A DNA stretch of 60,950 nucleotides, filler included, from Nemertoderma westbladi (Eukaryota; Animalia; Xenacoelomorpha): assembly GCA_032718475.1 (NCBI GenBank). It is 3 parts of 3 records of this genome, joined end to end, with 100 filler letters (N's around TTAATTAATTAA, not from the genome) between each part and the next. Parts side by side here need not be neighbours in the genome. Positions count along the whole stretch, not along the records: positions 52,369 to 60,950 come from JAUCBJ010002460.1; 2 more parts are not named here. One strand, written 5' to 3'. The translations under genes were made by a program, and so were the position numbers. Positions 11,085-60,950 of this stretch are shown here, piece after piece (the stretch's first letter is position 1; each line of letters begins with the position of its first letter). A model generated the notes under the pieces. It saw only the letters and a program-made list of their open reading frames with translations, did not search any database and had not been told where the DNA came from.

Positions 11085-12010
11085 TTTTATAGCCAAAAAC
11101 AATTACCAATTGATGGAAAGGAGCAGGTTAAGGCCGAGTTTTCTAACCAAAACAATAAACAGTCACTTTACCAAATCAGGGAAAGGAGCAGGTTACAGAG
11201 ACGGGATTTTTTAACCAAAACAATAAACGATCACTTAACTAATTGAGGGAAAGGAGCAGGTTACAGAGGCGGGATTTTAGAACCAAAACAATAAACGATC
11301 ACTTAACTTATTGAGGGAAAGGAGCAGGTTACAGAGGCGGGATTTTCTAACCAAAACAATAAACGATCCTTTAACTAATTGAGGGAAAGCGACAGGTTAC
11401 AGAGGCGGAATTTTCTAACCAAAACAATAAACGATCACTTAACTAATTGAGGGAAAGGAGCAGGTTACAGAGGCGGGATTTTCTAACCAAAACAATAAAC
11501 GATCATTTAACTAATTGAGGGAAAGGGGCAGGTTACAGAGGCGGGCCTTTATAACCAAAACAATAAACGGTCACTTTACCAATTCAGGGAAAGGAGCAGG
11601 TTACAGGAGGCGGGATTTTCTAACCAAAACAATAAACGATCATTTAACTAATTGAGGGAAAGGGGCAGGTTACAGAGGCGGGATTTTCTAACCAAAACAA
11701 TAAACGATCATTTAACTAATTGAGGGAAAGGAGCAGGTTACAGAGACGGGATTTTCTAACCAAAACAATAAACGATAACATTACCAATTGAGAGAAAGGA
11801 GCAGGTTACAGAGGCGGGATTTTCTAACCAAAACAATAAACGATAACATTACCAATTGAGGGAAAGGAGCAGGTTACAGAGGCGGGATTTTCTAACCAAA
11901 ACAATAAACGATCACTTAACTAATTGAGGGAAAGGAGCAGGTTAAGGCCGGATTTTCTAACCAAAACAATAAACAGTCACTTTACCAAATCAGGGAAAGG
12001 AGCAGGTTAT
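11085..12010. repeat. 68-bp minisatellite, about 13 copies, built from a dispersed repeat core
   Basis: Unit GGGAAAGGAGCAGGTTACAGAGGCGGGATTTTCTAACCAAAACAATAAACGATCACTTAACTAATTGA, with anchors at 11179, 11247 and 11315. Confidence 0.95.
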
Positions 12011-12675: not shown

Positions 12676-13206
12676 ATGGCGTTACTTTTGTCGCGGATTT
12701 TGAGTAAATCGCCTGGAAATACAAGTCATGTCGTACGATTAAAGCGGTCCATAATCGCCACCCCCACTAACCAACAAACTATAGGCAACACGACCTGTTT
12801 TAGTTACGGAGTGCCGGATCGTCTATCACGGGTAGGCATACATAATGTATCGGCGCGATACATCAGCGCAAAGAACGCTATGATTTACCAAAAGTCGGAC
12901 AGTAAAAAGGTTGCGAAAATGTGGCTGATAGAACGTGTTCTGGCATCGGGTATGTTAGTGGCCATCCCTTTATCGTTCTTCTACCAACCCTGGTGGATGG
13001 ACTACGTGCTCACTGTCTCTATAGTGACGCATAGTTACTGGGGTTTGAGTCACTTGAGCAAGGACTATGTGCACGGCCCATGGCTTCCCCGACTAGTTCA
13101 TTGGTTCCTCGCTGCGGTTTCTACATTGGTTATTGCGATACTATTTTATTTCAACTACACCGATGTCGGCCTTATCGGCGCATCTAAACTCATCTGGTCA
13201 GTGTGA
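12676..13206 (+). CDS. SDHD: succinate dehydrogenase cytochrome b small subunit (CybS), single exon
   Basis: 176 aa with a presequence, WLIERVLA, THSYWGL (haem His), DYVH (quinone-site Asp-Tyr), YFNYTDVG and three TM segments. Confidence 0.93.
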   Translation: MALLLSRILSKSPGNTSHVVRLKRSIIATPTNQQTIGNTTCFSYGVPDRLSRVGIHNVSARYISAKNAMIYQKSDSKKVAKMWLIERVLASGMLVAIPLSFFYQPWWMDYVLTVSIVTHSYWGLSHLSKDYVHGPWLPRLVHWFLAAVSTLVIAILFYFNYTDVGLIGASKLIWSV

Positions 13207-17550: not shown

Positions 17551-18591
17551 TTAGGAACGTTTTGCTATTTTAGCGATTTCCCCTAAAAACACATCGCATT
17601 TATTAATGAGGATATCGAGTGACTCGATAACCAGTTCATGTGGAGGCAAGGCGCCGGTCGATTCTACTGTAAAAATAAAATGATTGCGAATCCGCGAGAG
17701 TTCCACCAAGGGAGATAACTCCGGGTGTCTGTGGACCTCACGACATCCGCTGTCCCTACGGGGGTTGGCAACGGTCGCAGTCACCTCACCGTCGTCGCCC
17801 CTAGCAACCTTAATGACGTCACCACGAGGGTCCTTAGTGAAACAGTCTGCGAGCCGTTGGGCGAGGTCTCCGCGGACCGGGGCCAGCAGCCGGATGGCCG
17901 GGAGCAGTCTGTAGCTCGCGATGGCAACCGGAGAGAACTTGGCGTGGACGTTACCGCATCCCTTGAAGCAATGCGCGACAATGTCCAACTCCTGCCCCGG
18001 ACGAAGTTTAGCTATTAGTATATCGGAATCCACAGGTAGAACGTCACCCGCACGGAGCCGCTCCGCCTGACCACCTAAAGGGTTCCACTTCATGTCGCTA
18101 GTGTACACGTTGCTATGGATATAGGCGTCCTTCGGGTCGCCGCTTTGTTTAACGTTTCGAGTGCATTTTACTTTCAGTTTCAACTCGACCGTGTTGAACT
18201 CAGTGGTCTCGTCGTCGGATCCTCGTGTTTCGAAGAGCCTCGGGTCCGCCTTCACCGGGATTAAACCGAGTCTGTGCGCGAGAAACTCGTCCTGTATGAG
18301 GGAGGTGTTCCCGTGGATGAACACGCGGTCGACCGCCATCGTCGGCAGTTCCCCTATGACAACCCGACGGATCGCGTTCGCTATCGCCGCGTCCACTCCC
18401 ACCAGGTCGAACTCCAAGCTCAGTGGGTCCCGCTCCGAGCCCATCTGGACGATCTCGATTCGCAATGAGCGCCGGAACGCACGGAAGTCCCACGCGCCGT
18501 CCCGGTTAGGGTAGGCTCCAGGGAAGTCTGAGGCGCTAACGTTTCGGACATGGCGTTCTTCTAGAATTACCTTGTCCCTGATCGTATCCAT
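17551..18591 (-). CDS. POLR1C: RNA polymerase I/III subunit RPAC1 (AC40), single exon
   Basis: 346 aa with LEFDLVGVDAAIANAIRR, NTSLIQDEFLAHRLGLIP, DILIAKLRPGQE, HAKFSPVA and HFIFTVESTGALPP. Confidence 0.96.
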   Translation of the reverse strand: MDTIRDKVILEERHVRNVSASDFPGAYPNRDGAWDFRAFRRSLRIEIVQMGSERDPLSLEFDLVGVDAAIANAIRRVVIGELPTMAVDRVFIHGNTSLIQDEFLAHRLGLIPVKADPRLFETRGSDDETTEFNTVELKLKVKCTRNVKQSGDPKDAYIHSNVYTSDMKWNPLGGQAERLRAGDVLPVDSDILIAKLRPGQELDIVAHCFKGCGNVHAKFSPVAIASYRLLPAIRLLAPVRGDLAQRLADCFTKDPRGDVIKVARGDDGEVTATVANPRRDSGCREVHRHPELSPLVELSRIRNHFIFTVESTGALPPHELVIESLDILINKCDVFLGEIAKIAKRS

Positions 18592-25406: not shown

Positions 25407-25506
25407 NNNNNNNNNNNNNNNNNNNNNNNNNNNNNNNNNNNNNNNNNNNNTTAATTAATTAANNNNNNNNNNNNNNNNNNNNNNNNNNNNNNNNNNNNNN
25501 NNNNNN
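25407..25506. other. scaffold gap with artificial TTAATTAATTAA spacer
   Basis: N runs flank TTAATTAATTAA, in the same format as 52269-52368. Confidence 0.97.
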
Positions 25507-27484: not shown

Positions 27485-27728
27485 TGGGGTCGACTCGGCT
27501 CGCTGGACTCGACTCGGCTTGGTCCGGCTCAACTCGGTTCGATTCGGCTCGATCCTCTCGATTCGGCTTGATCGGCTTGACTCAGCTCGATCGGCTCGGT
27601 CTGGGTCGATTGGACTCAACTTGGTTGGACTCGGCTCAATTGGGCTCGACTCATCTCTATTGGGCTCGACTCGGCTCGATCGGCTCGGTACAGCTCGATT
27701 GGGCTCGATTGGTCTTGACTCGGTCTTG
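27485..27728. repeat. degenerate pentamer repeat (GGCTC/GACTC), probably a DNA-transposon subterminal region
   Basis: Runs of CTCGA/CTCGG/CTTGA follow TAGTGACAGGCC at about 27427. Confidence 0.7.
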
Positions 27729-30700
27729 ACTAACTAACAGTATCACATGTGTAAGTGGAGACTAACCATATCGCATGTGTAAGTGGAGACTAACTAACCG
27801 TATCGCATGTGTAAGTGGAGACTAACTAACCGTATCACATGTGTAAGTGGAGACTAACCGTATCGCATGTGTAAGTGGAGACTAACCGTATCGCATGTGT
27901 AAATGGAGACTAACTAACCGTATCACATGTGTAAGTGGAGACTAACTAACCGTATCGCATGTGTAAGTGGAGACTAACCATATCGCATGTGTAAGTGGAG
28001 ACTAACCGTATCGCATGTGTAAATGGAGACTAACTAACCGTATCGCATGTGTAAGTGGAGACAAACCGTATCGCATGTGTAAATGGAGACTAACTAACCG
28101 TATCGCATGTGTAAATGGAGACTAACTAACCGTATCGCATGTGTAAGTGGAGACTAACTAACCGTATCGCATGTGTAAGTGGAGACTAACTAACCGTATC
28201 GCATGTGTAAGTGGAGACTAACCGTATCACATGTGTAAGTGGAGACTAACTAACCGTATCGCATGTGTAAGTGGAGACTAACCGTATCGCATTTGTAAGT
28301 GGAGACTAACTAACCGTATCACATGTGTAAATGGAGACTAACTAACCGTATCGCATGTGTAAGTGGAGACTAACTAACCGTATCACATGTGTAAGTGGAG
28401 ACTAACCGTATCGCATGTGTAAGTGGAGACTAACCGTATCACATGTGTAAGTGGAGACTAACTAACCGTATCACATGTGTAAGTGGAGACTAACCGTATC
28501 GCATGTGTAAGTGGAGACTAACCGTATCACATGTGTAAGTGGAGACTAACCGTATCGCATTTGTAAGTGGAGACTAACTAACCGTATCACATGTGTAAAT
28601 GGAGACTAACTAACCGTATCGCATGTGTAAGTGGAGACTAACTAACCGTATCACATGTGTAAGTGGAGACTAACCGTATCGCATGTGTAAATGGAGACTA
28701 ACTAACCGTATCGCATGTGTAAATGGAGACTAACTAACCGTATCGCATGTGTAAGTGGAGACCAACTAACCTTATCACATGTGTAAATGGAGACTAACTA
28801 ACCGTATCGCATGTGTAAGTGGAGACTAACCGTATCGCATGTGTAAGTGGAGAATAACTAACCGTATCGCATGTGTAAGTGGAGACTAACTAACCGTATC
28901 GCATGTGTAAGTGGAGACTAACCGTATCACATGTGTAAATGGAGACTAACTAACCGTATCACATGTGTAAATGGAGACCAACTAACCGTATCACATGTGT
29001 CAATGGAGACTAACAACCGTATCGCATGTGTAAGTGGAGACTAACTAACCGTATCGCATGTGTAAATGGAGACTAACTAACCATATCGCATGTGTAAGTG
29101 GAGACTAACCGTATCGCATGTGTAAGTGGAGACTAACTAACCGTATCGCATGTGTAAGTGGAGACTAACCGTATCACATGTGTAAATGGAGATTAACTAA
29201 CCGTATCACATGTGTAAGTGGAGACTAACTAACCGTATCGCATGTGTAAGTGGAGACTAACTAACCGTATCGCATGTGTAAGTGGAGACTAACTAACCGT
29301 ATCGCATGTGTAAATGGAGACTAACTAACCGTATCGCATGTGTAAGTGGAGACTAACTAACCGTATCGCATGTGTAAGTGGAGACTAACCGTATCGTATG
29401 TGTAAGTGGAGACTAACCGTATCGTATGTGTAAGTGGAGACTAACTAACCGTATCGCATGTGTAAGTGGAGACTAACTAACCGTATCACATGTGTAAATG
29501 GAGACTAACTAACCGTATCACATGTGTAAATGGAGACTAACCGTATCGTATGTGTAAGTGGAGACTAACCGTATCGCATGTGTAAGTGGAGACTAACTAA
29601 CCGTATCGCATGTGTAAATGGAGACTAACTAACCGTATCGCATGTGTGAGTGGAGACTAACTAACCGTATCGCATGTGTAAGTGGAGACTAACTAACCGT
29701 ATCACATGTGTAAGTGGAGACTAACCGTATCGCATGTGTAAGTGGAGACTAACTAACCGTATCGCATGTGTAAGTGGAGACTAACTAACCGTATCACATG
29801 TGTAAATGGAGACTGTCAATGTAGACATTTTGTCCTGAGCCCAGAAAGACCGGCTTTGGAATCTCGGTGTTTTCAGTCTTTAGCCCAACATTAGTAGGCT
29901 TAATTATAGAACGTATATCTGTTAACTCACAAACAAACCAATTCATATCACATATCAATCAAACTTAACTTAACATTTTACTGCTATTTACTGTCGGTTA
30001 TTCATTATATCTGTTGATGGAATATTATATTTGGAATACTGATAAATAATCAGACACCCCAATCTTCTTGATATACTGAAGGTTAGAGAGACCGGTTACA
30101 TATAACGATTGCGACTTACATTAAAGTGGTTTGAAGTGAATCAAATGCTATTTCATAAGCACTACATGTACCGTCTGTTGTTCTCTTTATATGTGACTAA
30201 AATTAGTGAAGGTCGGCAGATCAGTGTGCAGCATTGCGCAGTATTGTGTATGATTGTGACTGATAACAAAGCATCTCCTAAAGAATGCGCCATATACGTG
30301 AATCTATAGCCATCCCGTTGTGTTTAGTTTAAGTCATAACTCTGTTTACATATTTAGAACGCCACGTCCTAAAGGAACTGTTAATATTTCCAGAAAGTGA
30401 ATAATATTTGTCAGAGATTATATATTACGATCAATCGAATAATACAGTAGGCCTACCCCGCAATACGGTTAGGCTTCCGAATCCAGTCTCCCGGGTATAT
30501 CCAGCGGGTGAATGATCGCGCATAGACTGGCTTCGGCTAATGTAGTGTATCAAATACTTGTCATAGGCTAAAGACGATCTATTATCTAAAAGACATCCCA
30601 ATTTGGCAGGTTAAACTGCTAAAGGTCTGAAAGCGCGAACACTAACCGTATCGCATGTGTAAGTGGAGACTAACTAACCGTATCGCATGTGTAAGTGGAG

Positions 30701-31997
30701 ACTAACTAACCGTATCGCATGTGTAAGTGGAGACTAACTAACCGTATCGCATGTGTAAATGGAGACTAACTAACCGTATCGCATGTGTAAGTGGAGACTA
30801 ACCGTATCGCATGTGTAAGTGGAGACTAACTAACCGTATCGCATGTGTAAGTGGAGACTAACTAACCGTATCGCATGTGTAAATGGAGACTAACTAACCG
30901 TATCGCATGTGTAAGTGGAGACTAACTAACCGTATCGCATGTGTAAATGGAGACTAACGGTATCGCATGTGTAAATGGAGACTAACTAACCGTATCGCAT
31001 GTGTAAGTGGAGACTAACTAACCGTATCGCATGTGTAAGTGGAGACTAACTAACCGTATCGCATGTGTAAGTGGAGACTAACTAACCGTATCGCATGTGT
31101 AAATGGAGACTAACTAACCGTATCGCATGTGTAAGTGGAGACTAACTAACCGTATCACATGTGTAAGTGGAGACTAACTAACCGTATCGCATGTGTAAGT
31201 GGAGACTAACTAACCGTATCGCATGTGTAAGTGGAGACTAACTAACCGTATCGCATGTGTAAATGGAGACTAACCGTATCGCATGTGTAAATGGAGACTA
31301 ACTAACCGTATCGCATGTGTAAGTGGAGACTAACTAACCGTATCGCATGTGTAAGTGGAGACTAACTAACCGTATCGCATGTGTAAATGGAGACTAACCG
31401 TATCGCATGTGTAAATGGAGACTAACTAACCGTATCGCATGTGTAAGTGGAGACTAACTAACCGTATCGCATGTGTAAATGGAGACTAACCGTATCGCAT
31501 GTGTAAGTGGAGACTAACTAACCGTATCGCATGTGTAAGTGGAGACTAACCGTATCGCATGTGTAAGTGGAGACTAACTAACCGTATCGCATGTGTAAAT
31601 GGAGACTAACTAACCGTATCGCATGTGTAAATGGAGACTAACTAACCGTATCGCATGTGTAAGTGGAGACTAACCGTATCGCATGTGTAAGTGGAGACTA
31701 ACCGTATCGCATGTGTAAGTGGAGACTAACTAACCGTATCGCATGTGTAAGTGGAGACTAACCGTATCGCATGTGTAAGTGGAGACTAACTAACCGTATC
31801 GCATGTGTAAATGGAGACTAACTAACCGTATCGCATGTGTAAGTGGAGACTAACCGTATCGCATGTGTAAGTGGAGACTAACCGTATCGCATGTGTAAGT
31901 GGAGACTAACTAACCGTATCACATGTGTAAGTGGAGACTAACCGTATCGCATGTGTAAATGGAGACTAACTAACCGTATCGCATGTGTAAGTGGAGA
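27728..31997 (-). repeat. 28/32-bp intronic satellite made of the WDR24 exon end plus 5' splice site, about 110 copies
   Basis: Minus-strand unit CTCCACTTACACATGCGATACG+GTTAGT(TAGT). The first copy is the coding end (STYTCDT) of the WDR24 exon. An insertion at 29814-30641 interrupts the array. Confidence 0.95.
29814..30641 (-). mobile_element. 828-bp TG...CA insertion in the satellite (putative solo LTR)
   Basis: Unique sequence with sharp edges in the array, bounded by TG and CA and homologous to 2626-3475. There is no canonical 4-6 bp TSD. Confidence 0.7.
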
Positions 31998-32868
31998 GCG
32001 ACGAACAATACTCTGTGTTGAATCCATCCGACTCGGGTTTACTTCTCCTGTTGAACATCATTGGTCGTTGTGATTGGGCGTATTGGGGCTTCTGTAGGAC
32101 AACGCCCCCAAGCGGCGGCTGCAAGGATCGACGCGAGCTGTCGGACGACCCGGTCGCTAGGGCGACTGCGTCCCCTCGGGAGTTCACGCTGAGTCCGACA
32201 GGGGGCGCCATCTCGGCGGTGCGGATCCCGTCTACGCGGCAGTTGAGACGGGCGATGGAGGAATCCTTGGAGACGGTGAGTAAAGTCATCCCCTCGGAGT
32301 CCTGTCGCCACCAAGAGAAGTCTGTGGTAACGTCCTTGTGGTTGTGGAAGGATTGGATGGGGATGTAAGGACGTTTAATATCCCAGATATTCACGGTAAA
32401 GTCGATAAGGAGGGAGGAAGTGGTTAGCTGTCTGGCGAATCCCGGACGCCACTTAACGCGAGCCACCGAGGCTATCGTCTGTATGGTCTGCTTCTCCCGG
32501 ATAGGGGAGACCCCGAGGTCCCAGACCTTGACGAGTTTGTCTCGACCGCCGGTGGCTAGGAGACCGTTGGCTACGTCCAGCGCGAACACTGGCCCCGTGT
32601 GGGCCGTAAAGTCCCACTGTCGTCGGTCCGGGGACCGCAGACTCCATTGCTCCACGGTTCCGTTCTCCAACGCGACGATAAACTCCCGGTTCACGAACAT
32701 TACGTCGCGAACGCGTTCCCCCACGTGGAACGTCTGAACCGAGAGTTTTTCTCGCAGGTCGAACAGCTTCACGAGGCCGTCGTGAGCGCCGCTCAGTAGG
32801 ACGTGGTGCTCGTCGTTATGGAAACGGATACGGTTCACGGTCTGCGCGTGTTCGCTGTACACCGTGTC
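31975..32868 (-). CDS. WDR24: GATOR2 subunit WDR24, second visible coding exon (the gene's 3' part was not found)
   Basis: Acceptor TTTTAG|GAC and donor ACG|GTTAGT, 894 nt, phase 0/0. WD40 repeats LLSGAHDG, FTAHTGPVF, LATGGRDK, QTIASVARVKWRP and IWDIKRPYIP. Confidence 0.9.
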
Positions 32869-33093
32869 CTAAAAGCAAACAACTTAGATTTAATAACAAC
32901 ACCAGTACCGGTATTTCGATTAAGAACCCAGGGTGATAAGGGGAAATCGACGCATAAAATCAGCTGGTTTAGAGAAATATCACATAACCTTTGCTATCAC
33001 GTAACCTTTGCTACTGACTCTCAATTTATTGTTTTGGTTAGAATAGCCAGCATATTACTGGTACGAGCTATTATAATTACCATGGATACCAAC

Positions 33094-33393
33094 CTGTTTA
33101 TTACGGGCTCCCTTCTGCAGGTTCCACAATACAACGGAACCATTAGTAGCTGCGCTAGCTATAACATTCTCATCGAATGGGTTCCAAGCCACATCGGTGG
33201 AACTGTAAGTGAGATTTAGATTCCTCCCAACACGAAGGTTGGCTATCTCTTTAAATTCGCTGTCCTCCACACTGTAGACTTTGAATAGATTGCGACCAAC
33301 AGTGGCAACTCTAAGTCCAATAGGAAGGTCTTTAAGATCCCGCGATGGCGAAAGGGATAACGCGCTGACTGGGAAACCAACGGACGCAGACAT
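33094..33393 (-). CDS. WDR24: WDR24 first visible coding exon
   Basis: NLRVGRNLNLTYSSTDVAWN...ASAATNGSVVLWNL...RNKQ, donor CAG|GTTGGT, splices in frame to 32868. A small upstream exon is possible. Confidence 0.88.
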
Positions 33394-35361: not shown

Positions 35362-36576
35362 ATGGGACGACTGCTCAATTTTCCAATTGATGTCCCGGGG
35401 CCAGCAACATTCCTATCCCGTTACGCTGGGTTTCTCGGCTGGTTGCCATGGTTTTTGAGACGATGGATACTTGTGAACAAGGCGAAACCGAGTCAGAGAC
35501 CGGACGATGTTCAAGATGTGTTGGGGAACGATCCCTATAAAATAGATGAGATCGTTCATGGTAAAGTTTGGAAGATTGCCTACGAGTACGCGGATAACCT
35601 CGTAGCCCATCGCAGTCGACTCAAGTTCGTCGACTTTTCTTCTGAAGAATCAATCAATGCCATATTAGCTGAGGCCGCAAAAGATGGTAGAGAGTCCCAC
35701 GCCCAAGCTACAGAAGATATTGAAAGGATGAAAGAAGTCAACAATTTATCACCTGAGGAGGTCCATGCCGGTGGATACGTTAAAGCGGCGAGCAAGAACA
35801 TCAACATGTATGTTGTTAAACTAACATCCGGTGACGTCATATTGTACTGCCCAGTTCACATTCACAGGAATTCCACCTTGTCCAACTTCCTGGATAAACT
35901 GGGCCCCGTTAGGTGGATAATCATTGGCTCATCCTACCACACTCTCTTCCTGCCTTCCGCTATGAAAACCTTTCCAGAAGCGATGGTTGTTGGGGCAACA
36001 GGAGCCGAGCTTAAGCTGAAGGCGGTATCGGCTTTCATCCGCGGCAAATTGGATTATGATGTCACTAAATCGGAGGATAGATGCCACCTAGCGGATAAGT
36101 TTGATGTCAATGAGCTGGAGTTGCTGTTCATCGCCGGGGATGTGTTCAGCCAGGCGATCATCGTTCGTGCGTCCAACGCTCTCCTCGAGGCCGATGTCAT
36201 CTACTCACACCATCCAGGCTGCACCTGCGTCGCCTGCAACCTGCCAATCACCTCCTTCCCCACTTGGAATATTCGTCTACGTCTGTGGACCTTTCGCTCC
36301 AACGAAGTCACTCATCCCGATTACGGTCTTCCCTACTACCGCTTCAGCCTAATGAACCCCGACAGCGTTTTGTACAACATGCTGATAACGCCGCCTCATG
36401 ATGGTGTTAACATCCTCGCTGCTATGGCGGGCTCATTGCGAACGGCTTTAGCGTCGTCCGTGGATGTCGTATGCTCCGTCCACAGCTCGATTCTAACTCC
36501 CGACGATTACAAGAAGAGTGTGGATCGCAACTGGTACTGGTTGGACGGAAAGTCACTACTTAATCAGAATGACTAA
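35362..36576 (+). CDS. DUF4336-like (metallo-beta-lactamase-like fold) protein, single exon
   Basis: Long ORF with first ATG at 35362. MYVVKLTSGDVILYCPV...LDKLGPVRWII..SSYHTLFL.....FPEA resembles the DUF4336 N-terminal motif. The family call is from recall. Confidence 0.65.
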   Translation: MGRLLNFPIDVPGPATFLSRYAGFLGWLPWFLRRWILVNKAKPSQRPDDVQDVLGNDPYKIDEIVHGKVWKIAYEYADNLVAHRSRLKFVDFSSEESINAILAEAAKDGRESHAQATEDIERMKEVNNLSPEEVHAGGYVKAASKNINMYVVKLTSGDVILYCPVHIHRNSTLSNFLDKLGPVRWIIIGSSYHTLFLPSAMKTFPEAMVVGATGAELKLKAVSAFIRGKLDYDVTKSEDRCHLADKFDVNELELLFIAGDVFSQAIIVRASNALLEADVIYSHHPGCTCVACNLPITSFPTWNIRLRLWTFRSNEVTHPDYGLPYYRFSLMNPDSVLYNMLITPPHDGVNILAAMAGSLRTALASSVDVVCSVHSSILTPDDYKKSVDRNWYWLDGKSLLNQND

Positions 36577-38286: not shown

Positions 38287-38694
38287 AATTTAACCTAATT
38301 TACATTCTTTATGGTGTAATAATTAATATATTTCGCGAAGATTTGACAGCAGCAAAAATATCACCATTATAACAGTTTTAACAACCTGATTGGTAGATAG
38401 CGTACTTTGGTCTCTAGGTCCTGTTCCTGCGTCTTTAGATGCAGTGATGTTTTTCTAAAAATGTTGATTAAAACTACACAACTTAAACTGAAACCTGTGC
38501 AATTGACACCGTTTATTGTTTTGGTTAGAATAATATTCTGTCGCAGCACATAATGGCGCAGTACGACCAAAGGAGCTAACGACGCAGAACCGTTTGTAGC
38601 TGACAGTTCCAATCATACAGTTGGTGACTTAGAGATTAGGAATTAACACGAATCCCATATCTCCAACCCCATTTACATTTGAACAAAGGTAGTT

Positions 38695-41600
38695 GTGGTT
38701 GTAACCCAACGGGAGGATACAACTATGGATGTAACCCAACAAGAGGATACAACTATGGATGTAACCCAACAAGAGGATACAGCTATGGATGTAAACCGCC
38801 CAGCTAGAGGATACAGCTATGGATGTAACCCAACAAGAGGATACAGCTATGGATGTAACCCAACAAGAGGATACAACTATGGATGTTACCCAACAAGAGG
38901 ATACAGCTATGGATGTATACCGCCCAACAAGAGGATACAGCTATGGATGTAACCCAACAAGAGGATACAGCTATGGATGTAACCCAACAAGAGGATACAG
39001 CTATGGATGTAACCCAACAAGAGGATACAACTATGGATGTAACCCAACAAGAGGATACAACTATGGATGTAACCCAACAAGAGGATACAACTATGGATGT
39101 CACCAAACAAGAGGATACAACTATGGATGTAACCCGCCAAACAAGAGGATACAACTATGGATGTAACCCGCCCAACAAGAGGATACAACTATGGATGTAA
39201 CCCAACAAGAGGATACAGCTATGGATGTAACCCAACAATAGGATACAACTATGGATGTAACCAAACAAGAGGATACAACTATGGATGTAACCCGCCCAAC
39301 AAGAGGATACAACTATGGATGTAACCCAACAAGAGGATACAACTATTTGATGTAACCCAACAAGAGGATACAACTATGGATGTAACCCATCCAACAAGAG
39401 GATACAACTATTTGATGTAACCCAACAAGAGGATACAACTATGGATGTAAACCGCCCAGCAAGAGGATACAGCTATGGATGTAACCCAACAAGAGGATAC
39501 AGCTATGGATGTAACCCAACAAGAGGATACAACTATGGATGTAACCCAACAAGAGGATACAGCTATGGATGTAACCCATCCAACTCCAACAAGAGGATAC
39601 AACTATGGATGTAACCCATCCAACAAGAGGATACAACTATGGATGTAACCCATCCAACAAGAGGATACAACTATGGATGTAACCCAACAAGAGGATACAG
39701 CTATGGATGTAACCCAACAAGAGGATACAACTATGGATGTAACCCATCCAACTCCAACAAGAGGATACAACTATGGATGTAACCCATCCAACAAGAGGAT
39801 ACAACTATGGATGTAACCCATCCAACAAGAGGATACAACTATGGATGTAACCCGCCCAACAAGAGGATACAACTATGGTTGTAACCCAACAAGAAGATAC
39901 AGCTATGGATGTAACCCAACAAGAGGATACAGCTATGGATGTAACCCGCCCAACGAGAGGATACAACTATGGATGCAACCCAACAAGAGGATACAGCTAT
40001 GGATGTAACCCAACAAGAGGATACAGCTATGGATGTAACCCAACAAGAGGATACAGCTATGGATGTAACCCATCCAACAAGAGGATACAACTATGGATGT
40101 AAACCGCCCAACAAAAGGATACAACTATGGATGTAGACCGCCCAACAAGAGGATACAACTATGGATGTAACCCAACAAGAGGATACAGCTATGGATGTAA
40201 CCCGCCCAACAAGAGGATAAAACTATGGATGTAACCCAACAAGAGGATACAACTATGGATGTAACCCAACAAGAGGATACAACTATGGATGTAACCCAAC
40301 AAGAGGACACATCTATGGATGTAACCCGCCCAACAAGTGGATACAGCTATGGATGTAACCCAACAAGAGGATACAACTATGGATGTAACCCAACAAGAGG
40401 ATACAACTATGGATGTAACCCAACAAGAGGATACAACTATGGATGTAACCCAACAAGAGGATACATCTATGGATGTAACCCGCCCAACAAGTGGATACAA
40501 CTATGGATGTAACCCAACAAGAGGATACAACTATGGATGTAACCCAACAAGAGGATACAACTATGGATGTAACCCATCCAACTCCAACAAGAGGATACAA
40601 CTATGGATGTAACCCATCCAACAAGAGGATATAACTATGGATGTAACCCATCCAACAAGAGGATACAACTATGGTTGTAACCCAACAAGAAGATACAGCT
40701 ATGGATGTAACCCAACAAGAGGATACAGCTATGGATGTAACCCGCCCAACGAGAGGATACAACTATGGATGCAACCCAACAAGAGGATACAGCTATGGAT
40801 GTAACCCAACAAGAGGATACAACTATGGATGTAAACCGCCCAACAAGAGGATACAACTATGGATGTAAACCGCCCAACAAGAGGATACAACTATGGATGT
40901 AACCCAACAAGAGGATACAGCTATGGATGTAACCCGCCCAACAAGAGGATAAAACTATGGATGTAACCCAACAAGAGGATACAACTATGGATGTAACCCA
41001 ACAAGAGGATACAACTATGGATGTAACCCAACAAGAGGACACATCTATGGATGTAACCCGCCCAACAAGTGGATACAGCTATGTATGTAACCCAACAAGA
41101 GGATACAACTATGGATGTAACCCAACAAGAGGATACAACTATGGATGTAACCCAACAAGAGGATACAACTATGGATGTAACCCAACAAGAGGATACATCT
41201 ATGGATGTAACCCGCCCAACAAGTGGATACAACTATGGATGTAACCCAACAAGAGGATACAACTATGGATGTAACCCAACAAGAGGATACATCTATGGAT
41301 GTAAACCGCCCAACAAGAGGATACAACTATGGATGTAACCCAACAAGAGGACACATCTATGGATGTAACCCGCCCAACAAGTGGATACAGCTATGGATGT
41401 AACCCAACAAGAGGATACAACTATGGATGTAACCCAACAAGAGGATACAACTATGGATGTAACCCAACAAGAGGATACAACTATGGATGTAACCCAACAA
41501 GAGGATACATCTATGGATGTAACCCGCCCAACAAGTGGATACAACTATGGATGTAACCCAACAAGAGGATACAACCCAACAAGAGGATACATCTATGGAT

Positions 41601-42055
41601 GTAAACCGCCCAACAAGAGGATACAACTATGGATTTAACCCGCCCAACAAGTGGATACAACTATGGATGTAACCCAACAAGAGGATACAACTATGGATGT
41701 AACCCAACAAGAGGATACATCTATGGATGTAAACCGCCCAACAAGAGGATACAACTATGGATTTAACCAACCCAACAAGTGGATACAACTATGGATGTAA
41801 CCCAACAAGAGGATACAACTATGGATGTAACCCAACAAGAGGATACAGCTATGGATGTAACCCAACAAGAGGATACAACTATGGATGTAACCCAACAAGA
41901 GGATACAACTATGGATGTAACCCAACAAGAGGATACATCTATGGATGTAAACCGCCCAACAAGAGGATACAACTATGGATTTAACCCACCCAACAAGTGG
42001 ATACAACTATGGATGTAACCCAACAAAGGATACAATTAACCCATCAAGAGGATAC
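38695..42055. repeat. 30/34-bp minisatellite, about 3.3 kb, with higher-order duplications
   Basis: Unit GGATACA(A/G)CTATGGATGTAACCCAACAAGA with +4 (CGCC/ATCC) variants. Variant patterns recur at a 732-bp offset (40125 vs 40857). Confidence 0.97.
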
Positions 42056-42881: not shown

Positions 42882-43650
42882 GGAGCTACAAGGAAGGCCA
42901 TTACAGGAGCTACAAGGAAGGCCATTATAGGAGCTACAAGGAAGGCCATCACAGGAGCTACAAGGAAGGACATTACAGGAGCTACAAGGAAGGACATTAC
43001 AGGAGCTACAAGTAAGGACATTACAGGAGCTACAAGGAAGGCCATTACAGGAGCTACAAGGAAGGCCATTACAGGAGCTACAAGGAAGGACATTACAGGA
43101 GCTACAAGGAAGGACATTACAGGAGCTACAAGGAAGGCCATTACAGGAGCTAAAAGGAAGGCCATTACAGGAGCTACAAGGAAGGCCATTACAGGAGCTA
43201 CAAGGAAGGACATTACAGGAGCTACAAGGAAGGACATTACAGGAGCTACAAGGAAGGCCATTACAGGAGCTAAAAGGAAGGCCATTACAGGAGCTACAAG
43301 GAAGGCCATTACAGGAGCTACAAGGAAGGCCATTACAGGAGCTACAAGGAAGGCCATTACAGGAGCTACAAGGAAGGACATTACAGGAGCTACAAGGAAG
43401 GCCATTACAGGAGCTACAAGGAAGGCCATTACAGGAGCTACAAGGAAGGACATTACAGGAGCTACAAGGAAGGACATTACAGGAGCTACAAGGAAGGCCC
43501 TTACAGGAGCTACAAGGAAGGCCATTACAGGAGCTACAAGGAAGGCCATTACAGGAGCTACAATGAAGGCCATTACAGGAGCTACAAGGAAGGCCATTAC
43601 AGGAGCTACAAGGAAGGCCATTACAAGAGCTACAAGGAAGGCCATTACAG
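42882..43650. repeat. 24-bp indel-free tandem repeat, 32 copies
   Basis: Unit GGAGCTACAAGGAAGG(C/A)CATTACA. The array ends at ACAG|GTAAAA. Confidence 0.97.
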
Positions 43651-45061
43651 GTAAAACTTAATAAAATGTGATGAAATTCTGCTATAGAATGGATTATTTT
43701 TACACATCAATAAAAAAAATAATTCTTAAAATTTAACTAAAATTTGATATTTTTTTTTAAATAAGAACTTATTTATTTCGAGGAATTTAATTTCTTAACC
43801 ACCATAAAATATTATTACCTGACAGTTTATTTATTATTGTGTATAAAGAACATTAATTAATACATGTCCCAACGTAGACGTAATGAATGGTAATTAACAG
43901 TTTATGTTTAGTACGACGTGAGTTGTGGATGTGGGACGAACCGCAGAGTGAGTGAGTCTTTAGGCAAACCATACAGATTAGCACGAGACAAATGGACACT
44001 GCCCGGTCTAATTCAATATTTGAACAGTTGGCGTTGGTCAACAATCGAAATTGTTTAGTTTTGACTCTTAATGTACTAAATAATGCCTCGTTGGCCGCTA
44101 CTAAAACCGGATGCAACCATCTAACACCATCTAGCGCAACCACAACATGGGTACACGCACAGTCGTACGCATATCACAAAGGTGCCCCAACAATCTGCTT
44201 TAACTCCCCCCGTAACACTTATATGGACATAATATGTACACAAATTGGTCAATAATATAAAAATAGAAGAAGCCAAATAAGGTTACACACTAATGTTAAT
44301 TGTCGTCCTCTTTCCTAAGACAGGAAATATTTAATCTAAAAAACATAGTGGATTTGGTATATATATGTTTGTGTTTGTATATGTGAGTGTATATTATTAT
44401 TAGTAACATGTCGAACATATTGTATTGTATAATTAACCTAAAATCGTGAGGTCAAATACTAGAAAATCAAGATTTTCTAGTATTTTAGCACTTTCGCTAA
44501 AATTTTAATTTTTGAACAAAAAGTTTATAAACTTCTAAAGTCTATAATATATCGAGAATTCACCTCACATAATTTCGATTTATTTAATAATTTTAGATTC
44601 TTAAAGTGATTGTGGTTCATTTTATAATAGGTACCAGTTTATAATCATTTTAACGTCTCTAACGTATAGTTTAACAAACAACAACTTATACAGGTGCGGT
44701 AGTGTGTGTCGGCTTAAGTATTAATATTAATTACGTACCGGTACCCCGTATAAACAAACCCAAACCCCTGGAACTTTCGAACTGTAACGCAATACGAACG
44801 TCTGCCAACTATATTTTAGCACAGAGTATTATATTATCTCCCAGTCGCAAAGGCCTTTATCTTTATCGCTTTAACACCTAAGCGATCTGGGTCACTAATA
44901 ATGCTACTGCGTTACCATTGATAAACCCCATGACTTAATAAACTACCCGATGTGATTGTTTAACAAAACAAGTGAACGTCATGGAGCAATCAATATAAAG
45001 ACTACAGAGACTGAGACAAACAAAGTCGGTATATTATAAAGCTGTCGGTAGATAGATTACA

Positions 45062-45652
45062 TCATTCTGTAGGGAAAGTCGGGTTTACCAGATGACTTTG
45101 GCGGCGATGTTGGTTGTCCTTCATGTGTAGAGCCTCATCGACTACGGCTACCGTCGGTATGGCACCGGTTACCGGCATCCGCTGCTTGGGTCGTCTTCCC
45201 GGCCCGCCAGGGACGCCCTTCGCCATGTTGTAGTCGCCACTATCAAAGTATTTCTGTCCCTTTTGCATCCGCTTCCGAAGGAAGTCGGAACCCGCACCAC
45301 CGCCTCGCCCAACCCCCGGGAACTTCGACCGTAGTTTCTGCTCTTCTAATTGCTCGATCGATAGCGGCGGTTTATTTATAGTGACCGGGACTTTGAAGGT
45401 GTCGCCGCCTTCTTCCTCGGTTTTATCTTCAACAGGAGACTGGATGCACGGCTGGGGGGGTTGATAAAGCTTGGGTATTGGGTATTTGGCTCGTGGCGGG
45501 GGCACAGGGGACTGGGTGTCCGAAGGTTTATCGATATCGGAATTAGTAGATACGTCAACTATTTCGATTTGAGTTTTCTCTATATTATCTGGATTCTCAT
45601 CAGCTGGTTGATGGAAACCGGTTCCGTCTGTTCCCGATGGAGGCCTATCCAT
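45062..45652 (-). CDS. ENSA: alpha-endosulfine / ARPP19 family PP2A-B55 inhibitor with a long N-terminal extension, single-exon CDS
   Basis: [10 protein letters not shown]...[25 protein letters not shown] (Greatwall site) and TGAIPT. The first ATG is at 45652. Confidence 0.9.
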
Positions 45653-51793: not shown

Positions 51794-51944
51794 GAGCGCC
51801 AGTAGTGAGTCGCTGGTACGTATTATAGAGCGCCAGTAGTGAGTCGCTGGTACGTATTATATAGCGCAAGTAGTGAGTCGCTGGTACGTATTATATAGCG
51901 CCAGTAGTGAGTCGCTGGTACGTATTATAGAGCGCCAGTAGTGA
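51794..51944. repeat. 34-bp tandem repeat, about 4.4 copies, followed by (TAGA)n
   Basis: Unit GAGCGCCAGTAGTGAGTCGCTGGTACGTATTATA. Confidence 0.9.
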
Positions 51945-52268: not shown

Positions 52269-52368
52269 NNNNNNNNNNNNNNNNNNNNNNNNNNNNNNNN
52301 NNNNNNNNNNNNTTAATTAATTAANNNNNNNNNNNNNNNNNNNNNNNNNNNNNNNNNNNNNNNNNNNN
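52269..52368. other. scaffold gap with artificial TTAATTAATTAA spacer
   Basis: N runs flank the spacer. Confidence 0.97.
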
Positions 52369-54186: not shown

Positions 54187-54355
54187 CTGAGAACCAAGGA
54201 AATCGATCACTTTGCTAGTAAATTCGGTTGGGTTGTCTAACGTAAATGTTGGTTGTTCGTTATAAATGCGAACGTAAACATCGCCAATTACCAACTCCGT
54301 AGAATGTACGGTAAACACGAAGTCCGACCCATACGACGAGTCGCATTCTCCCGTT
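54187..54355 (-). CDS. DNAJC13: DNAJC13/RME-8 exon (last visible)
   Basis: Acceptor TTTTAG|A and donor CAG|GTAAAT. Encodes TGECDSSYGSDFVF...ELVIGDVYVRIYNEQPTF...DFLGSQ. Confidence 0.9.
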
Positions 54356-54513
54356 CTAAAATATAAAACATATAAGTCAGACGTTTCTAAGTTGAGCGTT
54401 TAATGATGCGTTTGATTAATATTATTATTAAATTTTAGAATTTCTAACAAATCCCAATATATGACGTGTTTTCAACAAAAAATAGTTCAAGCACATGATA
54501 AGGTTCTACTTAC

Positions 54514-56465
54514 TTTATCATATCGGCCTGTTGTTTCTCCACATACTCCAGCAGTTCAGCTCGCGTTTCATTATCCCATATAAGGTAAGGATTCTCTGTG
54601 TTGCTGTTCAACAGTTTCAGTATATCCATGCTGCTCACCGTGGAGTTGGTCATCTGTTTGCAGACGAACCGCGTGAGTAACGCATTGAGACTCTTACGGA
54701 CGGTCGCGTTCTCCGGAGTCGCGGTCCCGTTGTTGTCGTGGTAACCAGCCAACCGGGACAGCGCGCGGATACTGAGTTTAGCGAGTTGATTCGCCACTTC
54801 CTGCTGGTTGGACTCGGCGCTCCTCTCCACGCCGCCCTCCTCCAGGGTGTAATCGTAGTTGAAGAGGAAGAGGAGGATATGCCAGATGATTCCGGCGAGG
54901 AACAGATGGTTCTGGAGGTAGTAGTCGACGGAGAGTGCGGAAGCGCAGTGGACGACTTCGCAACAGACGTTGGAAAGATTCCGGAAGTAGAGGATCCGAC
55001 AGAGATCGCGAATAATCACGGGGAGTTCCACGATGCGTTCCCGACACGGCCCGAATTGCGCCGCCACGGTGTAGCACTGCGCCACGTGGAAGCAGACGAG
55101 AGCCGGAGTATCGGAACCTCGACTCGATAAGCCGAGCACGTCGACGCATCGAGCCAATGCCCGTTGCAACGTCTCCACTCCGCACTCGCGTCGCATCTCT
55201 TCCGCGTTCAGCGCCGAACAGTCGACCGTGTGGTAGGCGAGCTGCACCGCCGCGGGGAGAATGTCCACCGGTTTGTTGAATAAACAATCGTCTTTGGTTT
55301 CCGAGTCGATGGTGGTGATTAACATTGGGTAACCCGCGTACTTATACGGGGAAAGAACCTCCGAACATCGGGTAAATAAGATACTCTGAGAGCGAAGTAA
55401 CAGTTTAATATTCTCCGGTTTCGGTCCGATATTCCGCGAGCTGGCTTTACTGCAGAGGAAGTCGTAGGCTTTATTGACCGCTTCGAAAATCTCCCGACCT
55501 TCAGGGTTCTTGTCGGGATGGTATTTCTGCGCCATACGGAAGTATGCGTGACGTAATTCGTTGTCGGGGTAACCCCCGGGTTTGGGGGTCAGGTTGAGCG
55601 CGGCGTGTGCTTCGTCCCAGCTAAGCGACGGGGGTTTCCTGTCTACCTCCTCCCGCCACGCCTCCAGGATGTCCTTGAGCAGACGAACCGGCTCCTCCAG
55701 CGGCCAGTCCGGGAACCGAGTCTCGTCGCACAGATGCCGCAGATAGTAGATGTTGACGAACAACTCGTCCTCCAGCTGGGGGTAGCTCACCGCCGGGATC
55801 GGGCAGAACTGGTACACCGATTGGCTGTTGCTCAGCAACCGGGGCGTGAAGTCCGCGATGTGGGTGGCTATCTTCTCGATCATCAACCTCCGCATCTCCG
55901 CGCTCCAGATCGCCTCGGGGGTGTCGAACTCCCCGAGGAACGTTCCCGCGAAGCGTTCCGCCCCGTGGTTGACCAGGTAGTAGACCATGGCCTCGGGGAG
56001 GATGGAACCCAGCACGGAACGGCCGTCGGTGGGGTCCTCGGAGCGGAACGCTTGCACCGAGTGGGAGCGCTGGAGGAACCGGGCGATCGGCAGGAGGTTG
56101 GATCCCGTGTACATAAGGATGAAGAAGAATACACCGGTGACGTAGAGACGGGGCAGCACCGGGTTGTCCTCCATGATCTTGTCGAGGAGGATGGCGACCT
56201 TCTCGACGATCATAGGGTCGAAGGTTAGAAGGAGTTGGACGACATGGGGGAGGCAGAAAGCGTCGGAGAGGAGCCGTTTAATCCGGGGAAGTGGTCGGAT
56301 AATGGCGCCCTCCTCGTCTCTACTCGGGTAGAAGTCCGTCATGGTGTTTAGCGTATTGAGTATGAGGACGGCGATGTCGGATTCGTTGAGAACCGGCGAG
56401 GATGTGGCAACCAGAGTCCATCGGAGCTGCGGAATAAACTGCAGTTGTTTCCAACCGTCCATTCC
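54514..56465 (-). CDS. DNAJC13: DNAJC13/RME-8 large exon with J domain
   Basis: Acceptor TGTAG|GGA and donor AA|GTAAGT (phase 2). Contains [36 protein letters not shown] and [15 protein letters not shown]. Confidence 0.95.
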
Positions 56466-56811
56466 CTACAAAATTCGTATAATAAAAAAAGGGAAAGGTA
56501 CAATATATATTGTAATATCCGACCAACGGGATATCCGAAAGACCGGAATATACAACTTTTCAATATAAATAACGTAAAGACCAACCGCTCGCTAAGCTAA
56601 AATGTAATTTAAAAGTCGCAACTGTAATTATAAAATTAGTATAAAATATCTTCGGTCGGAAATGTCCTATGCTGGATCCGGAAAATTCAAATTCCGACCA
56701 ATAAAGACAAGTAATTGTTTTTAAAAGTTGATTGGACGGAACAGTCCTGGTCGGAATAGACCGTCCGACTAACCTGCGCGACTGCGCGACGAACCGGAAT
56801 ACCAGACTAAC

Positions 56812-57384
56812 CTGCGCCCATATTTGAGTTTTCGCGTTTATCGATTCCTCCTCGAACATTTCCTTAATATCCTGGAAACTATAGGGTCCGAGTTTATCGC
56901 GCTGTTTATTAAATATAAAGAATTCCTTCTGCGAGTGCCGGAAGTTGTCCCCGCCCGCCTCTATAGTGAGAGTCTGCAAGGGGACCGTCGCCCTGGTTAC
57001 GTGTAGGTGAGCCAATACGAGAAGGTTAATGAAGACCCGACAACAATTCGCGTCGATTAATTCCTTCACGTTCCGTCGATTTAACGCGAGTTTCGATATG
57101 AAGATAAGCAATCGATCCCGCTCTATTCGGTCGCTACTGCGTTCCAACATGGACACGATAAACCGGACGTCCGGGAAATTACCTATCTCGTCATGGCAAC
57201 GAGCGTAGACAATGGCCATGGCTTGGAGACAAAGACATCGCATAGTGAGTTTGGGAGTTTGTAGGAATCTGTGGTACAAATCGTTAAAGAATTCGTAGGG
57301 GCGTTTAATCGGGGAGCTGGATTCCTGGGAATTGGTGCTGTCCTCTTCCAATAAGAGTCGCAGGTAGTAATCACCTATTTTAAC
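56812..57384 (-). CDS. DNAJC13: DNAJC13/RME-8 exon (GYF_2 region)
   Basis: Acceptor TTTTAG|GTT and donor CAG|GTTAGT. Encodes KIGDYYLRLLL...FFNDLYHRFL...ERDRLL...TQIWAQ. Confidence 0.93.
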
Positions 57385-57634: not shown

Positions 57635-57805
57635 CTCATCAGAGAGACTATCATAAGTTACTTCGAATTCCTGGTGGTTCCACGACAGTAAATGTTTACT
57701 ACCGAGTTCCTTATCGGTTGAGAACGAACGGATCTCTAATTCCAGTCGTTCGCGAAGTTCCTCGCGGGTTTTATGGTTCCAGATGAGGTTAGATCGGGCG
57801 TGGTC
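57635..57805 (-). CDS. DNAJC13: DNAJC13/RME-8 exon (IWN repeat)
   Basis: Acceptor TTACAG|GAC and donor GAG|GTAGGG. Encodes [18 protein letters not shown]...SWNHQEFEV. Confidence 0.92.
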
Positions 57806-57969: not shown

Positions 57970-58188
57970 CAGCTGGAAGTGATAATAGAATAATGGCCAA
58001 TTGAGTTCCGCTTTAATACGTTGTCTCCGTTTCCGCAATATGATTGGTTGTTCGTCGTCCCTTCTGCGAGTGTTTACCGACACGCCAATACGCGCCCCCC
58101 AGTGCTCCAACACTCTCTCCACCTGGCGCCATTGCGCCTCCACCTGTCGCCAATGGGAGGGCCCCCTCGTTGATTGCTCTTGGGCTGT
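57970..58188 (-). CDS. DNAJC13: DNAJC13/RME-8 exon (first visible)
   Basis: Acceptor TTTTATAG|ACA and donor CTG|GTCAGT. Encodes TAQEQ...PIILRKRRQRIKAELNWPLFYYHF. Confidence 0.9.
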
Positions 58189-58405
58189 CTATAAAATAAA
58201 CACATCCGACGTAAAGTTAGTAGCAACATTATTATAGTGTCTTATGCTATGGGGGCTGGTGAAATTAAATATCATTGTAGATTCTTACGATCGGTACTTT
58301 GAATGTAAATTTGACGTAAAATATGGAATTTACATTACATATAAATTTTAGCACTTTTAAATAATGAAATAATTGTACTTTGTAATTAATTATTGATTCT
58401 TAGTA

Positions 58406-60950
58406 TTCAGTAGTCACCTTGATGTTGTCTCTGGTGTTTAGTACTCGCCTTAAGGTTGTCTCTTTGTGTTCTGTTCAGTACTCACCTCGAGGTTGTCTCT
58501 GGTGTTCAGTACTCGCCTCGAGGTTGTCTCTGGTGTTCAGTACTCGCCTTAAGGTTGTCTCTGGTGTTTAGTACTCGCCTTAAGGTTGTCTCTGGTGTTC
58601 TGTTCAGTACTCTCCTCGAGGTTGTCTCTGGTGTTCAGTACTCTGCTTAAGGTTGTCTCTGGTGTTCAGTACTCGCCTTAAGGTTGTCTCTGGTGTTCAG
58701 TTCTCACCTCGAGGTTGTCACTGGTGTTTAGTACTCACCTTAAGGTTGTCTCTGGTGTTCTGTTCAGTACTCACCTCGAGGTTGTCTCTGGTGTTCAGTA
58801 CTCGCCTTAAGGTTGTCTCTGGTGTTCTGTTCAGTACTCTCCTCAAGGTTGTCTCTGGTGTTCAGTACTCGGCTTAAGGTTGTCTCTGGTGTTCAGTACT
58901 CGCCTTAGGGTTGTCTCTGGTGTTCAATTCTCACCTCGAGGTTGTCACTGGTGTTCAGTACTCACCTTAAGGTTGTCTCTGGTTTTCTGTTCAGTACTCA
59001 TCTCAAGGTTGTCTCTGGTGTTCAGTATTCGGCTTAAGGTTGTCTCTGGTGTTCAGTACTCGCCTTAAGGTTGTCTCTGGTGTTCAATTCTCACCTCGAG
59101 GTTGTCACTAGTGTTCAGTACTCACCTTAAGGTTGTCTCTGGTTTTCTGTTCAGTACTCACCTCGAGGTTGTCTCTGGTGTTCAGTCCTGGCCTTAAGGT
59201 TGTCTCTGGTGTTCAGTACTCGCCTTAAGGTTGACTTTGGTGTTCAGTACTCACCTCGAGGTTGTCACTGGTGTTCAGTACTCACCTTAAGGTTGTCTCT
59301 GGTTTTTTGTTCAGTACTCACCTCGAGGTTGTCTCTGGTGTTCCGTACTCGCCTTAAGGTTGTCTCTGGTGTTCTGTTCAGTACTCACCTCGAGGTTGTC
59401 TCTGGTGTTCAGTACTCGCCTTAAGGTTGTCTCTGGTGTTCTGTTCAGTACTCTCCTCGAGGTTGTCTCTGGTGTTCAGTACTCGGCTTAAGGTTGTCTC
59501 TGGTGTTCAGTACTCGCCTTAGGGTTGTCTCTGGTGTTCAATTCTCACCTCGAGGTTGTCACTGGTGTTCAGTACTCACCTTAAGGTTGTCTCTGGTTTT
59601 CTGTTCAGTACTCAACTCGAGGTTGTCTCTGGTGTTCAGTATTCGGCTTAAGGTTGTCTATGGTGTTCAGTACTCGCCTTAAGGTTGTCTCTGGTGTTCA
59701 ATTCTCACCTCGAGGTTGTCACTGGTGTTCAGTACTCACCTTAAGGTTGTCTCTGGTTTTCTGTTCAGTACTCACCTCGAGGTTGTCTCTGGTGTTCAGT
59801 ACTGGCCTTAAGGTTGTCTCTGGTGTTCAGTACTCGCCTTAAGGTTGTCTTTGGTGTTCAGTACTCACCTCGAGGTTGTCACTGGTGTTCAGTACTCACC
59901 TTAAGGTTGTCTCTGGTTTTTTGTTCAGTACTCACCTCGAGGTTGTCTCTGGTGTTCAGTACTCGCCTTAAGGTTGTCTCTGGTGTTCAGTACTCACCTC
60001 GAGGAGGTTGTCTCTGGTGTTCAGTACTCACCTTGAGGTTGTCTCTGGTGTTCAGTACTCACCTTAAGGTTGTCTCTGGTGTTCAGTACTCACCTCGAGG
60101 TTGTCTCTGGTGTTCAGTACTCACCTTGAGGTTGTCTCTCTGGTGTTCAGTACTCACCTTGAGGTTGTCTCTGGTGTTCAGTACTCACCTTAAGGTTGCT
60201 CTGGTGTTCTGTTTAGAACTCACCTTAAGGTTGTCTCTGGTGTTCAGTACTCACTTTGAGGTTGTCTCTGGTGTTCAGTACTCACCTTGAGGTTGTCTCT
60301 GGTGTTCAGTACTCATCGTAAGGTTGTCTCTGGTGTTCAGTACTCACCTTAAGGTTGTATCTGGTGTTCAGCACTCACCTTAAAGTTGTCTGTGGTGTTC
60401 AGTACTCACCTTAAGGTCGTCTCTGGTGTTCTGTTCAGTACTCACCTTAAGGTTGTCTCTGGTGTTCAGTACTCACCTTGAGGTTGTCTCTGGTGTTCAG
60501 TACTCATCGTAAGGTTGTCTCTGGTGTTCAGTACTCACCTTAAGGTTGTATCTGGTGTTCAGCACTCACCTTAAAGTTGTCTGTGGTGTTCAGTACTCAC
60601 CTTAAGGTCGTCTCTGGTGTTCTGTTCAGTACTCACCTTAAGGTTGTCTCTGGTGTTCAGTACTCATCGTAAGGTTGTCTCTGGTGTTCAGTACTCATCG
60701 TAAGGTTGTCTCTGGTGTTCAGTACTCACCTTAAGGTTGTATCTGGTGTTCAGCACTCACCTTAATGTTGTCTGTGGTGTTCAGTACTCACCTTAAGGTT
60801 GTCTCTGGTGTTCAGTACTCACCTTAAGGTTGTCTCTGGTGTTCTGTTCAGTACTCACCTTAAGGTTGTCTCTGGTGTTCAGTACTCATCGTAAGGTTGT
60901 CTCTGGTGTTCAGTACTCACCTTAAGGTTGTATCTGGTGTTCAGTACTCA
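58406..60950 (-). repeat. 31/36-bp intronic satellite matching the predicted DNAJC13 upstream exon end plus 5' splice site, about 80 copies, continuing beyond the window
   Basis: Minus-strand unit CTGAACACCAGAGACAACCTTAAG+GTGAGTA, which translates as LNTRDNLK followed by a consensus donor. Confidence 0.92.

Follow-up and report, generated by a model that had tools for sequence, protein, structure and literature searches.

The last piece of the window, the 60,950-nt stretch of Nemertoderma westbladi DNA analysed here, carries part of the gene DNAJC13/RME-8, on the minus strand (Pfam), and on the same strand a 31-nt minisatellite of at least 79 copies (58406-60950). In all likelihood, this array is a donor-spanning minisatellite that arose by duplication of an exon end, with the first donor being used and the other copies ignored. 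TRF reports period 31 over 58406-60950, with higher periods of 160 and 191, and the array reaches the last base of the window, where it is still open. Read on the gene strand, the unit gives LNTRDNLK and then AAG|GTGAGT, that is, 24 nt of predicted exon end followed by 7 nt of intron start with the donor; this translation had been given in a preliminary description of the sequence and is borne out by the decomposition of the array into 79 monomers with a complete donor window. A 36-nt variant accounts for 14 of the 78 measured units. Two sub-arrays are distinguished: (i) an exon-side one (60000-60950, minus strand), built on a 191-nt higher-order repeat, with mostly GT donors and five copies reading ACG|AT, and (ii) an acceptor-side one (58406-59999, minus strand), built on a 160-nt five-mer with a 614-nt duplication (98.7% identity), in which mutations of the donor hexamer are enriched. 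The start of the array is also present in contigs of the DNA runs X1-X3, of which X1 may be the source; array length and internal order rest on a single assembly, as the contigs of the short-read runs do not span the arrays. In common variants of the unit, the codons for Leu-Lys vary between the 6-base palindromes CTTAAG and CTCGAG, and both intermediates are present in 58406-60950. A coding role for the array was ruled out, because the unit length is not divisible by 3 and reading on runs into a stop after 17 codons.

The exon that follows the array in the gene (57970-58188, minus strand) was recognized by homology and lies outside the spliced cover of run X4. It starts at 58188, is preceded by TTTTATAG and opens in phase 0 with TAQEQ, as previously described, and it matches positions 688-741 of Pfam RME-8_N (E 5.9e-12). 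Four further exons were placed on the minus strand: 57635-57805 (X4 joint 57382/57633); 56812-57384, the GYF_2 region (Pfam and X4 contigs), whose GYF_2 match is slightly below the Pfam cut-off; 54514-56465, a large exon with the J-domain region (X4 contigs and homologs); and 54187-54355 (X4 contigs), the last exon identified in the contig. The order of the RME-8_N, GYF_2, and J-domain regions is as expected, and homologs named DNAJC13 carry PF00226. Identity is at the level of orthologs, with 58-64% to the 120 listed homologs and 61-62% to amphioxus, and there is no close relative among those listed. Contigs of X4, a run labelled 'DNA?' yet spliced, are joined across three GT-AG introns of DNAJC13 and one of a second gene, WDR24. 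The complete introns in the window measure 158, 164, 225, 250, and 346 nt. Within DNAJC13, positions 54208 and 54483 are brought together in DNA contigs of X1 and X2, a single letter separating them (side 30, depth about 20), alongside contigs that match the window sequence; the 274 nt concerned (54209-54482) may correspond to a deletion allele lacking most of a DNAJC13 exon together with an acceptor, or to a repeat artefact.

The relation of the unit to the preceding exon was assessed on an ortholog alignment built without the monomer peptide, in which 114 of the 120 homologs align to the post-array exon. The RDN motif occurs in 109 of these 114, and RDNVK or RDNLK are the commonest residues just before the first column of that exon. 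On a profile from the 109 of 114 orthologs, LNTRDNLK scores 22.8 bits, and the orthologs themselves range from 17.3 to 29.7. Among 20,000 shuffles of the monomer, read over both strands in each of the 62 phases, the best reached 13.5, and the best of the 116,260 other 8-mers in the window reached 11.2; none attained the score of the peptide. Four orthologs are identical to the peptide at seven of its eight residues. Since LNTRDNLK scores within the ortholog range and far beyond the shuffles, the unit very likely consists of the preceding exon's last bases together with the splice donor of that exon, the exon itself lying outside the window. The preliminary description had proposed that the monomer fits the peptide expected before this intron, on the strength of the human sequence, MHVRDNVK-IAMDQ; the profile upholds the fit, and that sequence is confirmed by mammalian orthologs with RDNVK-IAMDQ and by MHVRDNVK in 13 of the 109 motif-bearing orthologs. 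A host protein with the upstream exon was sought in two ways: a word-based search using the post-array exon yielded none among 15 candidates, and HMMER on cluster representatives gave 61 matches, which do not come from N. westbladi because none exceeds 73% identity.

With respect to origin, the last 24 exon bases and the first seven intron bases were probably duplicated by slippage, and the duplicated boundary would then have been amplified into the DNAJC13 intron. The seed is best sought at the distal boundary, in an imperfect 8-nt direct repeat (CTGAA, C/T, AC) with its two copies, one of them in the exon, 31 nt apart: in the unique intron beyond the last donor, eight bases match the first eight of the unit at seven positions. 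Subsequent growth would have occurred by unequal exchange in blocks of 160, 191, and 614 nt. With the array collapsed, a residual intron of 229 nt runs from the last donor (GTGACT) to the acceptor (58189-58417, minus strand); this length is normal here, where the other complete introns measure 158-346 nt, and the remainder is likely the pre-expansion intron. Splicing of DNAJC13 likely proceeds from the first, exon-attached donor. A transcript spliced from a decoy would gain repeat sequence and meet a stop in frame 17 codons from the start of the unit, which would likely lead to its destruction. Most likely, the array persists as a tolerated passenger without a function of its own. The excess of donor-hexamer mutations near the acceptor, described below, fits poorly with fully neutral decoys.

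A second case of the same layout is found in the window at WDR24 (31975-33393, minus strand). Its second coding exon (31975-32868, minus strand) can be aligned with orthologs as far as about residue 400, and the last codons of this exon (STYTCDT) form the first copy of a donor-spanning minisatellite with a 28/32-nt unit and 112 copies (27728-31997, minus strand). This array is interrupted at 29813-30642 by an 830-nt dispersed repeat, 81% like 2626-3451. Microhomology at the WDR24 seed is just 2 nt. An X4 contig of 2855 nt splices the first WDR24 intron, agrees with the genome as far as 31975, immediately ahead of the first GT, and carries 1471 more letters beyond that position which are absent from the window; DNA contigs of X1-X3 continue past 31975 to the end of the stretch. 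In this one contig of one run, WDR24 splicing takes the first donor of the array, and minor use of the decoys may occur as well, since Logan contigs drop rare isoforms. A tblastn search with 109 orthologs found no 3' exons of WDR24 in the window, where 2.2 kb of the contig are left before a linker.

Donors are lost unevenly along the DNAJC13 array. GT is present in 25 of the 30 copies at or above 60020 versus 22 of the 49 below (Fisher p 9e-4, the copies not being independent), and the distal copies without GT include 17 with GC, four with CC, and three with GA. The contrast between changed distal and kept proximal donors noted in the preliminary description therefore stands in its main lines, except that it had missed the five proximal copies that also lack GT (5/30, all ACG|AT). 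Eleven monomer types are proximal, 21 are distal, and two are common to both zones. Because the zones share just these two types, the GT 'gradient' is a step between two sub-arrays and not a general decay. Most distal GT losses, in our reading, go back to one GT>GC change and its descendants, spread by higher-order duplication.

One tentative and doubtful addition to the best explanation is that decoys near the acceptor of this short-intron gene compete by intron definition and that selection favours broken hexamers there. For this comparison, copies were rejected as independent units and distinct alleles were counted instead, which removes the inflation due to higher-order duplication; the count omits four odd-length units of 78, and one end unit is unmeasured. 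Across 48 units of the acceptor-side sub-array, 10 of the 18 alleles possible in the donor hexamer occur, against 12 of 75 for the remaining 25 sites (Fisher, one-sided, p 0.0011); simulated nulls that allow for transition and G/C bias put the p value of this excess at 0.0004-0.0012. Among the 10 copies closest to the acceptor, at 229-519 nt, just one retains GTGAGT. Selection confined to the neighbourhood of an acceptor would also explain the WDR24 copies, which keep GT in 112 of 112 cases: no following exon is visible anywhere near them, and the remaining 2.2 kb of their contig contain nothing resembling an exon of the orthologs. In a genome-wide study, moreover, cryptic 5' splice motifs are depleted in the introns of short-intron genomes (PMC3245539). 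However, the excess appears in one of three sub-arrays: the hexamer shows one of 18 alleles versus 11 of 75 in the exon-side sub-array, and one of 18 versus 12 of 78 in the WDR24 array. In addition, some 6-site window reaches 10 alleles in 2.3% of permutations (p 0.023), and the boundary between the zones was set after inspecting the data. Retention of GT in 22 of the 49 distal copies, and of GC in an otherwise strong context in 17 more, also weighs against selection, and a local mutation hotspot or an assembly error could produce the excess. Finally, pseudo-sites in a human F7 minigene were reported not to compete (PMC1557585). We found no report of position-dependent donor loss within such arrays in the literature searched, in which subscription papers were thinly covered.

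Polar growth, put forward in the preliminary description as an alternative to decay of distal decoys, would have copies added on the exon side and aging outward, so that the distal ones are older. Total divergence of the DNAJC13 monomers from their consensus does correlate with position (rho -0.41), and in the WDR24 array the copies of the far block have diverged further from the one in the exon (0.81 versus 0.39 substitutions, rho -0.22). However, the DNAJC13 trend disappears once the donor hexamer is set aside (Spearman rho -0.05, p 0.67; 1.07 versus 1.27 non-donor substitutions per copy), and the distal zone is still turning over, since its 614-nt duplication is 98.7% identical. Polar growth is thus unlikely; what persists of the earlier proposal is the narrower, donor-specific excess near the acceptor.

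It is far less probable that tandem duplication created the DNAJC13 intron from a duplicated AG|GT proto-site. The exonic part of the unit does end in AAG|GT, the same model has been proposed for the amphioxus 'mirages' discussed below (PMC3087553), and several genomic ORF fragments from other organisms are continuous through RDN[LV]K, the motif being present in 14 of 54 short matches. However, the copies precede an independent acceptor: its AG, at 58189, belongs to a unique, AT-rich stretch of 217 nt beyond the repeats, which makes the intron older than the array. The intron bases of the unit are also unlike the start of the next exon. DNAJC13 accordingly departs from the Rogers model, in which both splice sites stem from the duplicated unit and the intron is derived from an exon. 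That an unrelated satellite or an assembly artefact merely resembles the exon end has a negligible probability: the contig does end within the array and the window consists of contigs joined by N linkers, but the peptide match is far outside chance, the array start is found in DNA runs X1-X3, and WDR24 shows the same layout.

The reading of the DNAJC13 array as an exon-end duplication also agrees with published systems. Donor-spanning arrays have already been reported, and DNAJC13 is a clean, long example of a described oddity. In intron IVS7 of human F7, a 37-bp VNTR has its first monomer across the exon-intron boundary (Borensztajn et al., 2006; PMC1557585); the same paper cites the cases of 6-16 (IFI6), CBS IVS13, lamin B2, and PDGF intron 4, and in arrays of this type the first donor is the only or main one used. 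Similarly, the tandem unit of both the DNAJC13 and WDR24 arrays consists of exon-end sequence plus a splice donor that is reiterated in the intron. In WDR24, the first monomer spans the true boundary and the most upstream donor is the one used; in DNAJC13, a boundary copy used in this way is predicted. The arrays differ from F7 in copy number (at least 79 in DNAJC13 and 112 in WDR24, versus 5-9 for F7 and a maximum near 26 among the cited cases) and, for DNAJC13, in the exonic bases per unit (24 versus 4), in the higher-order structure, unlike that of F7, and in the pseudo-sites, many of which are mutated whereas those of F7 are identical.

Another published system is that of the mirages of amphioxus, minisatellite-like duplicated exon-intron boundaries in Adh3 and in the globin genes BflGb6 and BflGb9, which leave normal splicing undisturbed (PMC3087553). 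Like the present arrays, they belong to an invertebrate, affect several loci per genome, have units of 10-160 bp, and combine normal splicing, seen for WDR24 and predicted for DNAJC13, with concerted evolution and a divergent end copy. However, amphioxus is a different animal from N. westbladi, as the 61-62% identity of DNAJC13 illustrates. In human segmental duplications, variable internal tandem repeats at exon-intron boundaries can give rise to new introns or alternative splicing (PMC2812944). Those repeats share their position at boundaries with the arrays described here, for which, by contrast, no alternative product came to light and the intron is the older element. A genome-wide strand asymmetry has revealed selection against cryptic 5' splice motifs in introns (PMC3245539); such a mechanism suits the loss of decoys in short-intron genomes, but the signal is genome-wide, neither within arrays nor position-dependent. 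More practically, donor-spanning arrays interrupt the assembly of conserved genes, whose missing exon end can be predicted from the repeat unit.

The window also gives a hint that seeding is biased to donors. Three of its eight donors (seven visible, one inferred) are duplicated, versus none of its six acceptors; two of the three head the long arrays and the other carries a short duplicate. The latter is the DNAJC13 donor at 56811 (duplicated junction 56767-56817, minus strand), where an exact 13-nt copy of the junction lies 38 nt into the intron and the spliced X4 contig takes the first copy; it is possibly an early or a decayed two-copy stage. As background, 15 of 5290 non-array GT sites have a recurrence of at least 13 nt within 150 nt, and the first units of five large arrays contribute another 29 GT sites, which brings the share to about 0.8%. 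With the donor that prompted the analysis excluded, a count of at least two among seven donors has p of about 0.001 to 0.002, calculated by hand. With a 13-nt threshold chosen once the case was known, and a background that omits small arrays, this bias is only a hint from one window. The combined proposal that donors often seed duplications (3/8) and that selection disables decoys only within intron-definition range of the acceptor is, in our judgement, quite doubtful. If true, donor arrays would amount to a genome-wide natural experiment, mapping the distance from an acceptor over which a perfect 5' splice site can compete. If both hints held genome-wide, upstream-first scanning could be tested against intron definition with many natural replicates.

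Donor-like motifs accompany three other arrays of the window. A 34-nt array of 4.4 copies (51794-51944, plus strand) contains CTG|GTACGT in its unit; a 24-nt array of 32 copies (42882-43651, plus strand) is open in some frames and ends at CAG|GTAAAA; and a 30-nt array of about 106 copies (38696-42035) begins after AAG|GTAGTT on the plus strand and has CCATAG acceptor-like sites on the minus strand. For 123 ORFs in the neighbourhood of these arrays (119 out of 164 listed, and four added), Pfam gave one weak ETRAMP match, which looks compositional, and none of the three arrays could be linked to an exon.

The window itself is made of concatenated contigs separated by N44-TTAATTAATTAA-N44 linkers at 25407-25506 and 52269-52368, which carry stop codons in each of the six frames; both WDR24 and DNAJC13 have their 3' portions outside it. 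A 68-nt array at 11108-12009 has a motif of about 20 nt in common with 33025-33051 and 38506-38530, places where many contigs join, which suggests a minisatellite derived from a dispersed element. Long single ORFs occur at 8026-8781, 12676-13203, 17554-18591, 35365-36573, and 45065-45649, with Pfam matches to CR6_interact, CybS, RNA_pol_L, DUF4336, and Endosulfine, respectively, the last two under the cut-off; these five loci are apparently intron-poor genes in repeat-rich DNA.
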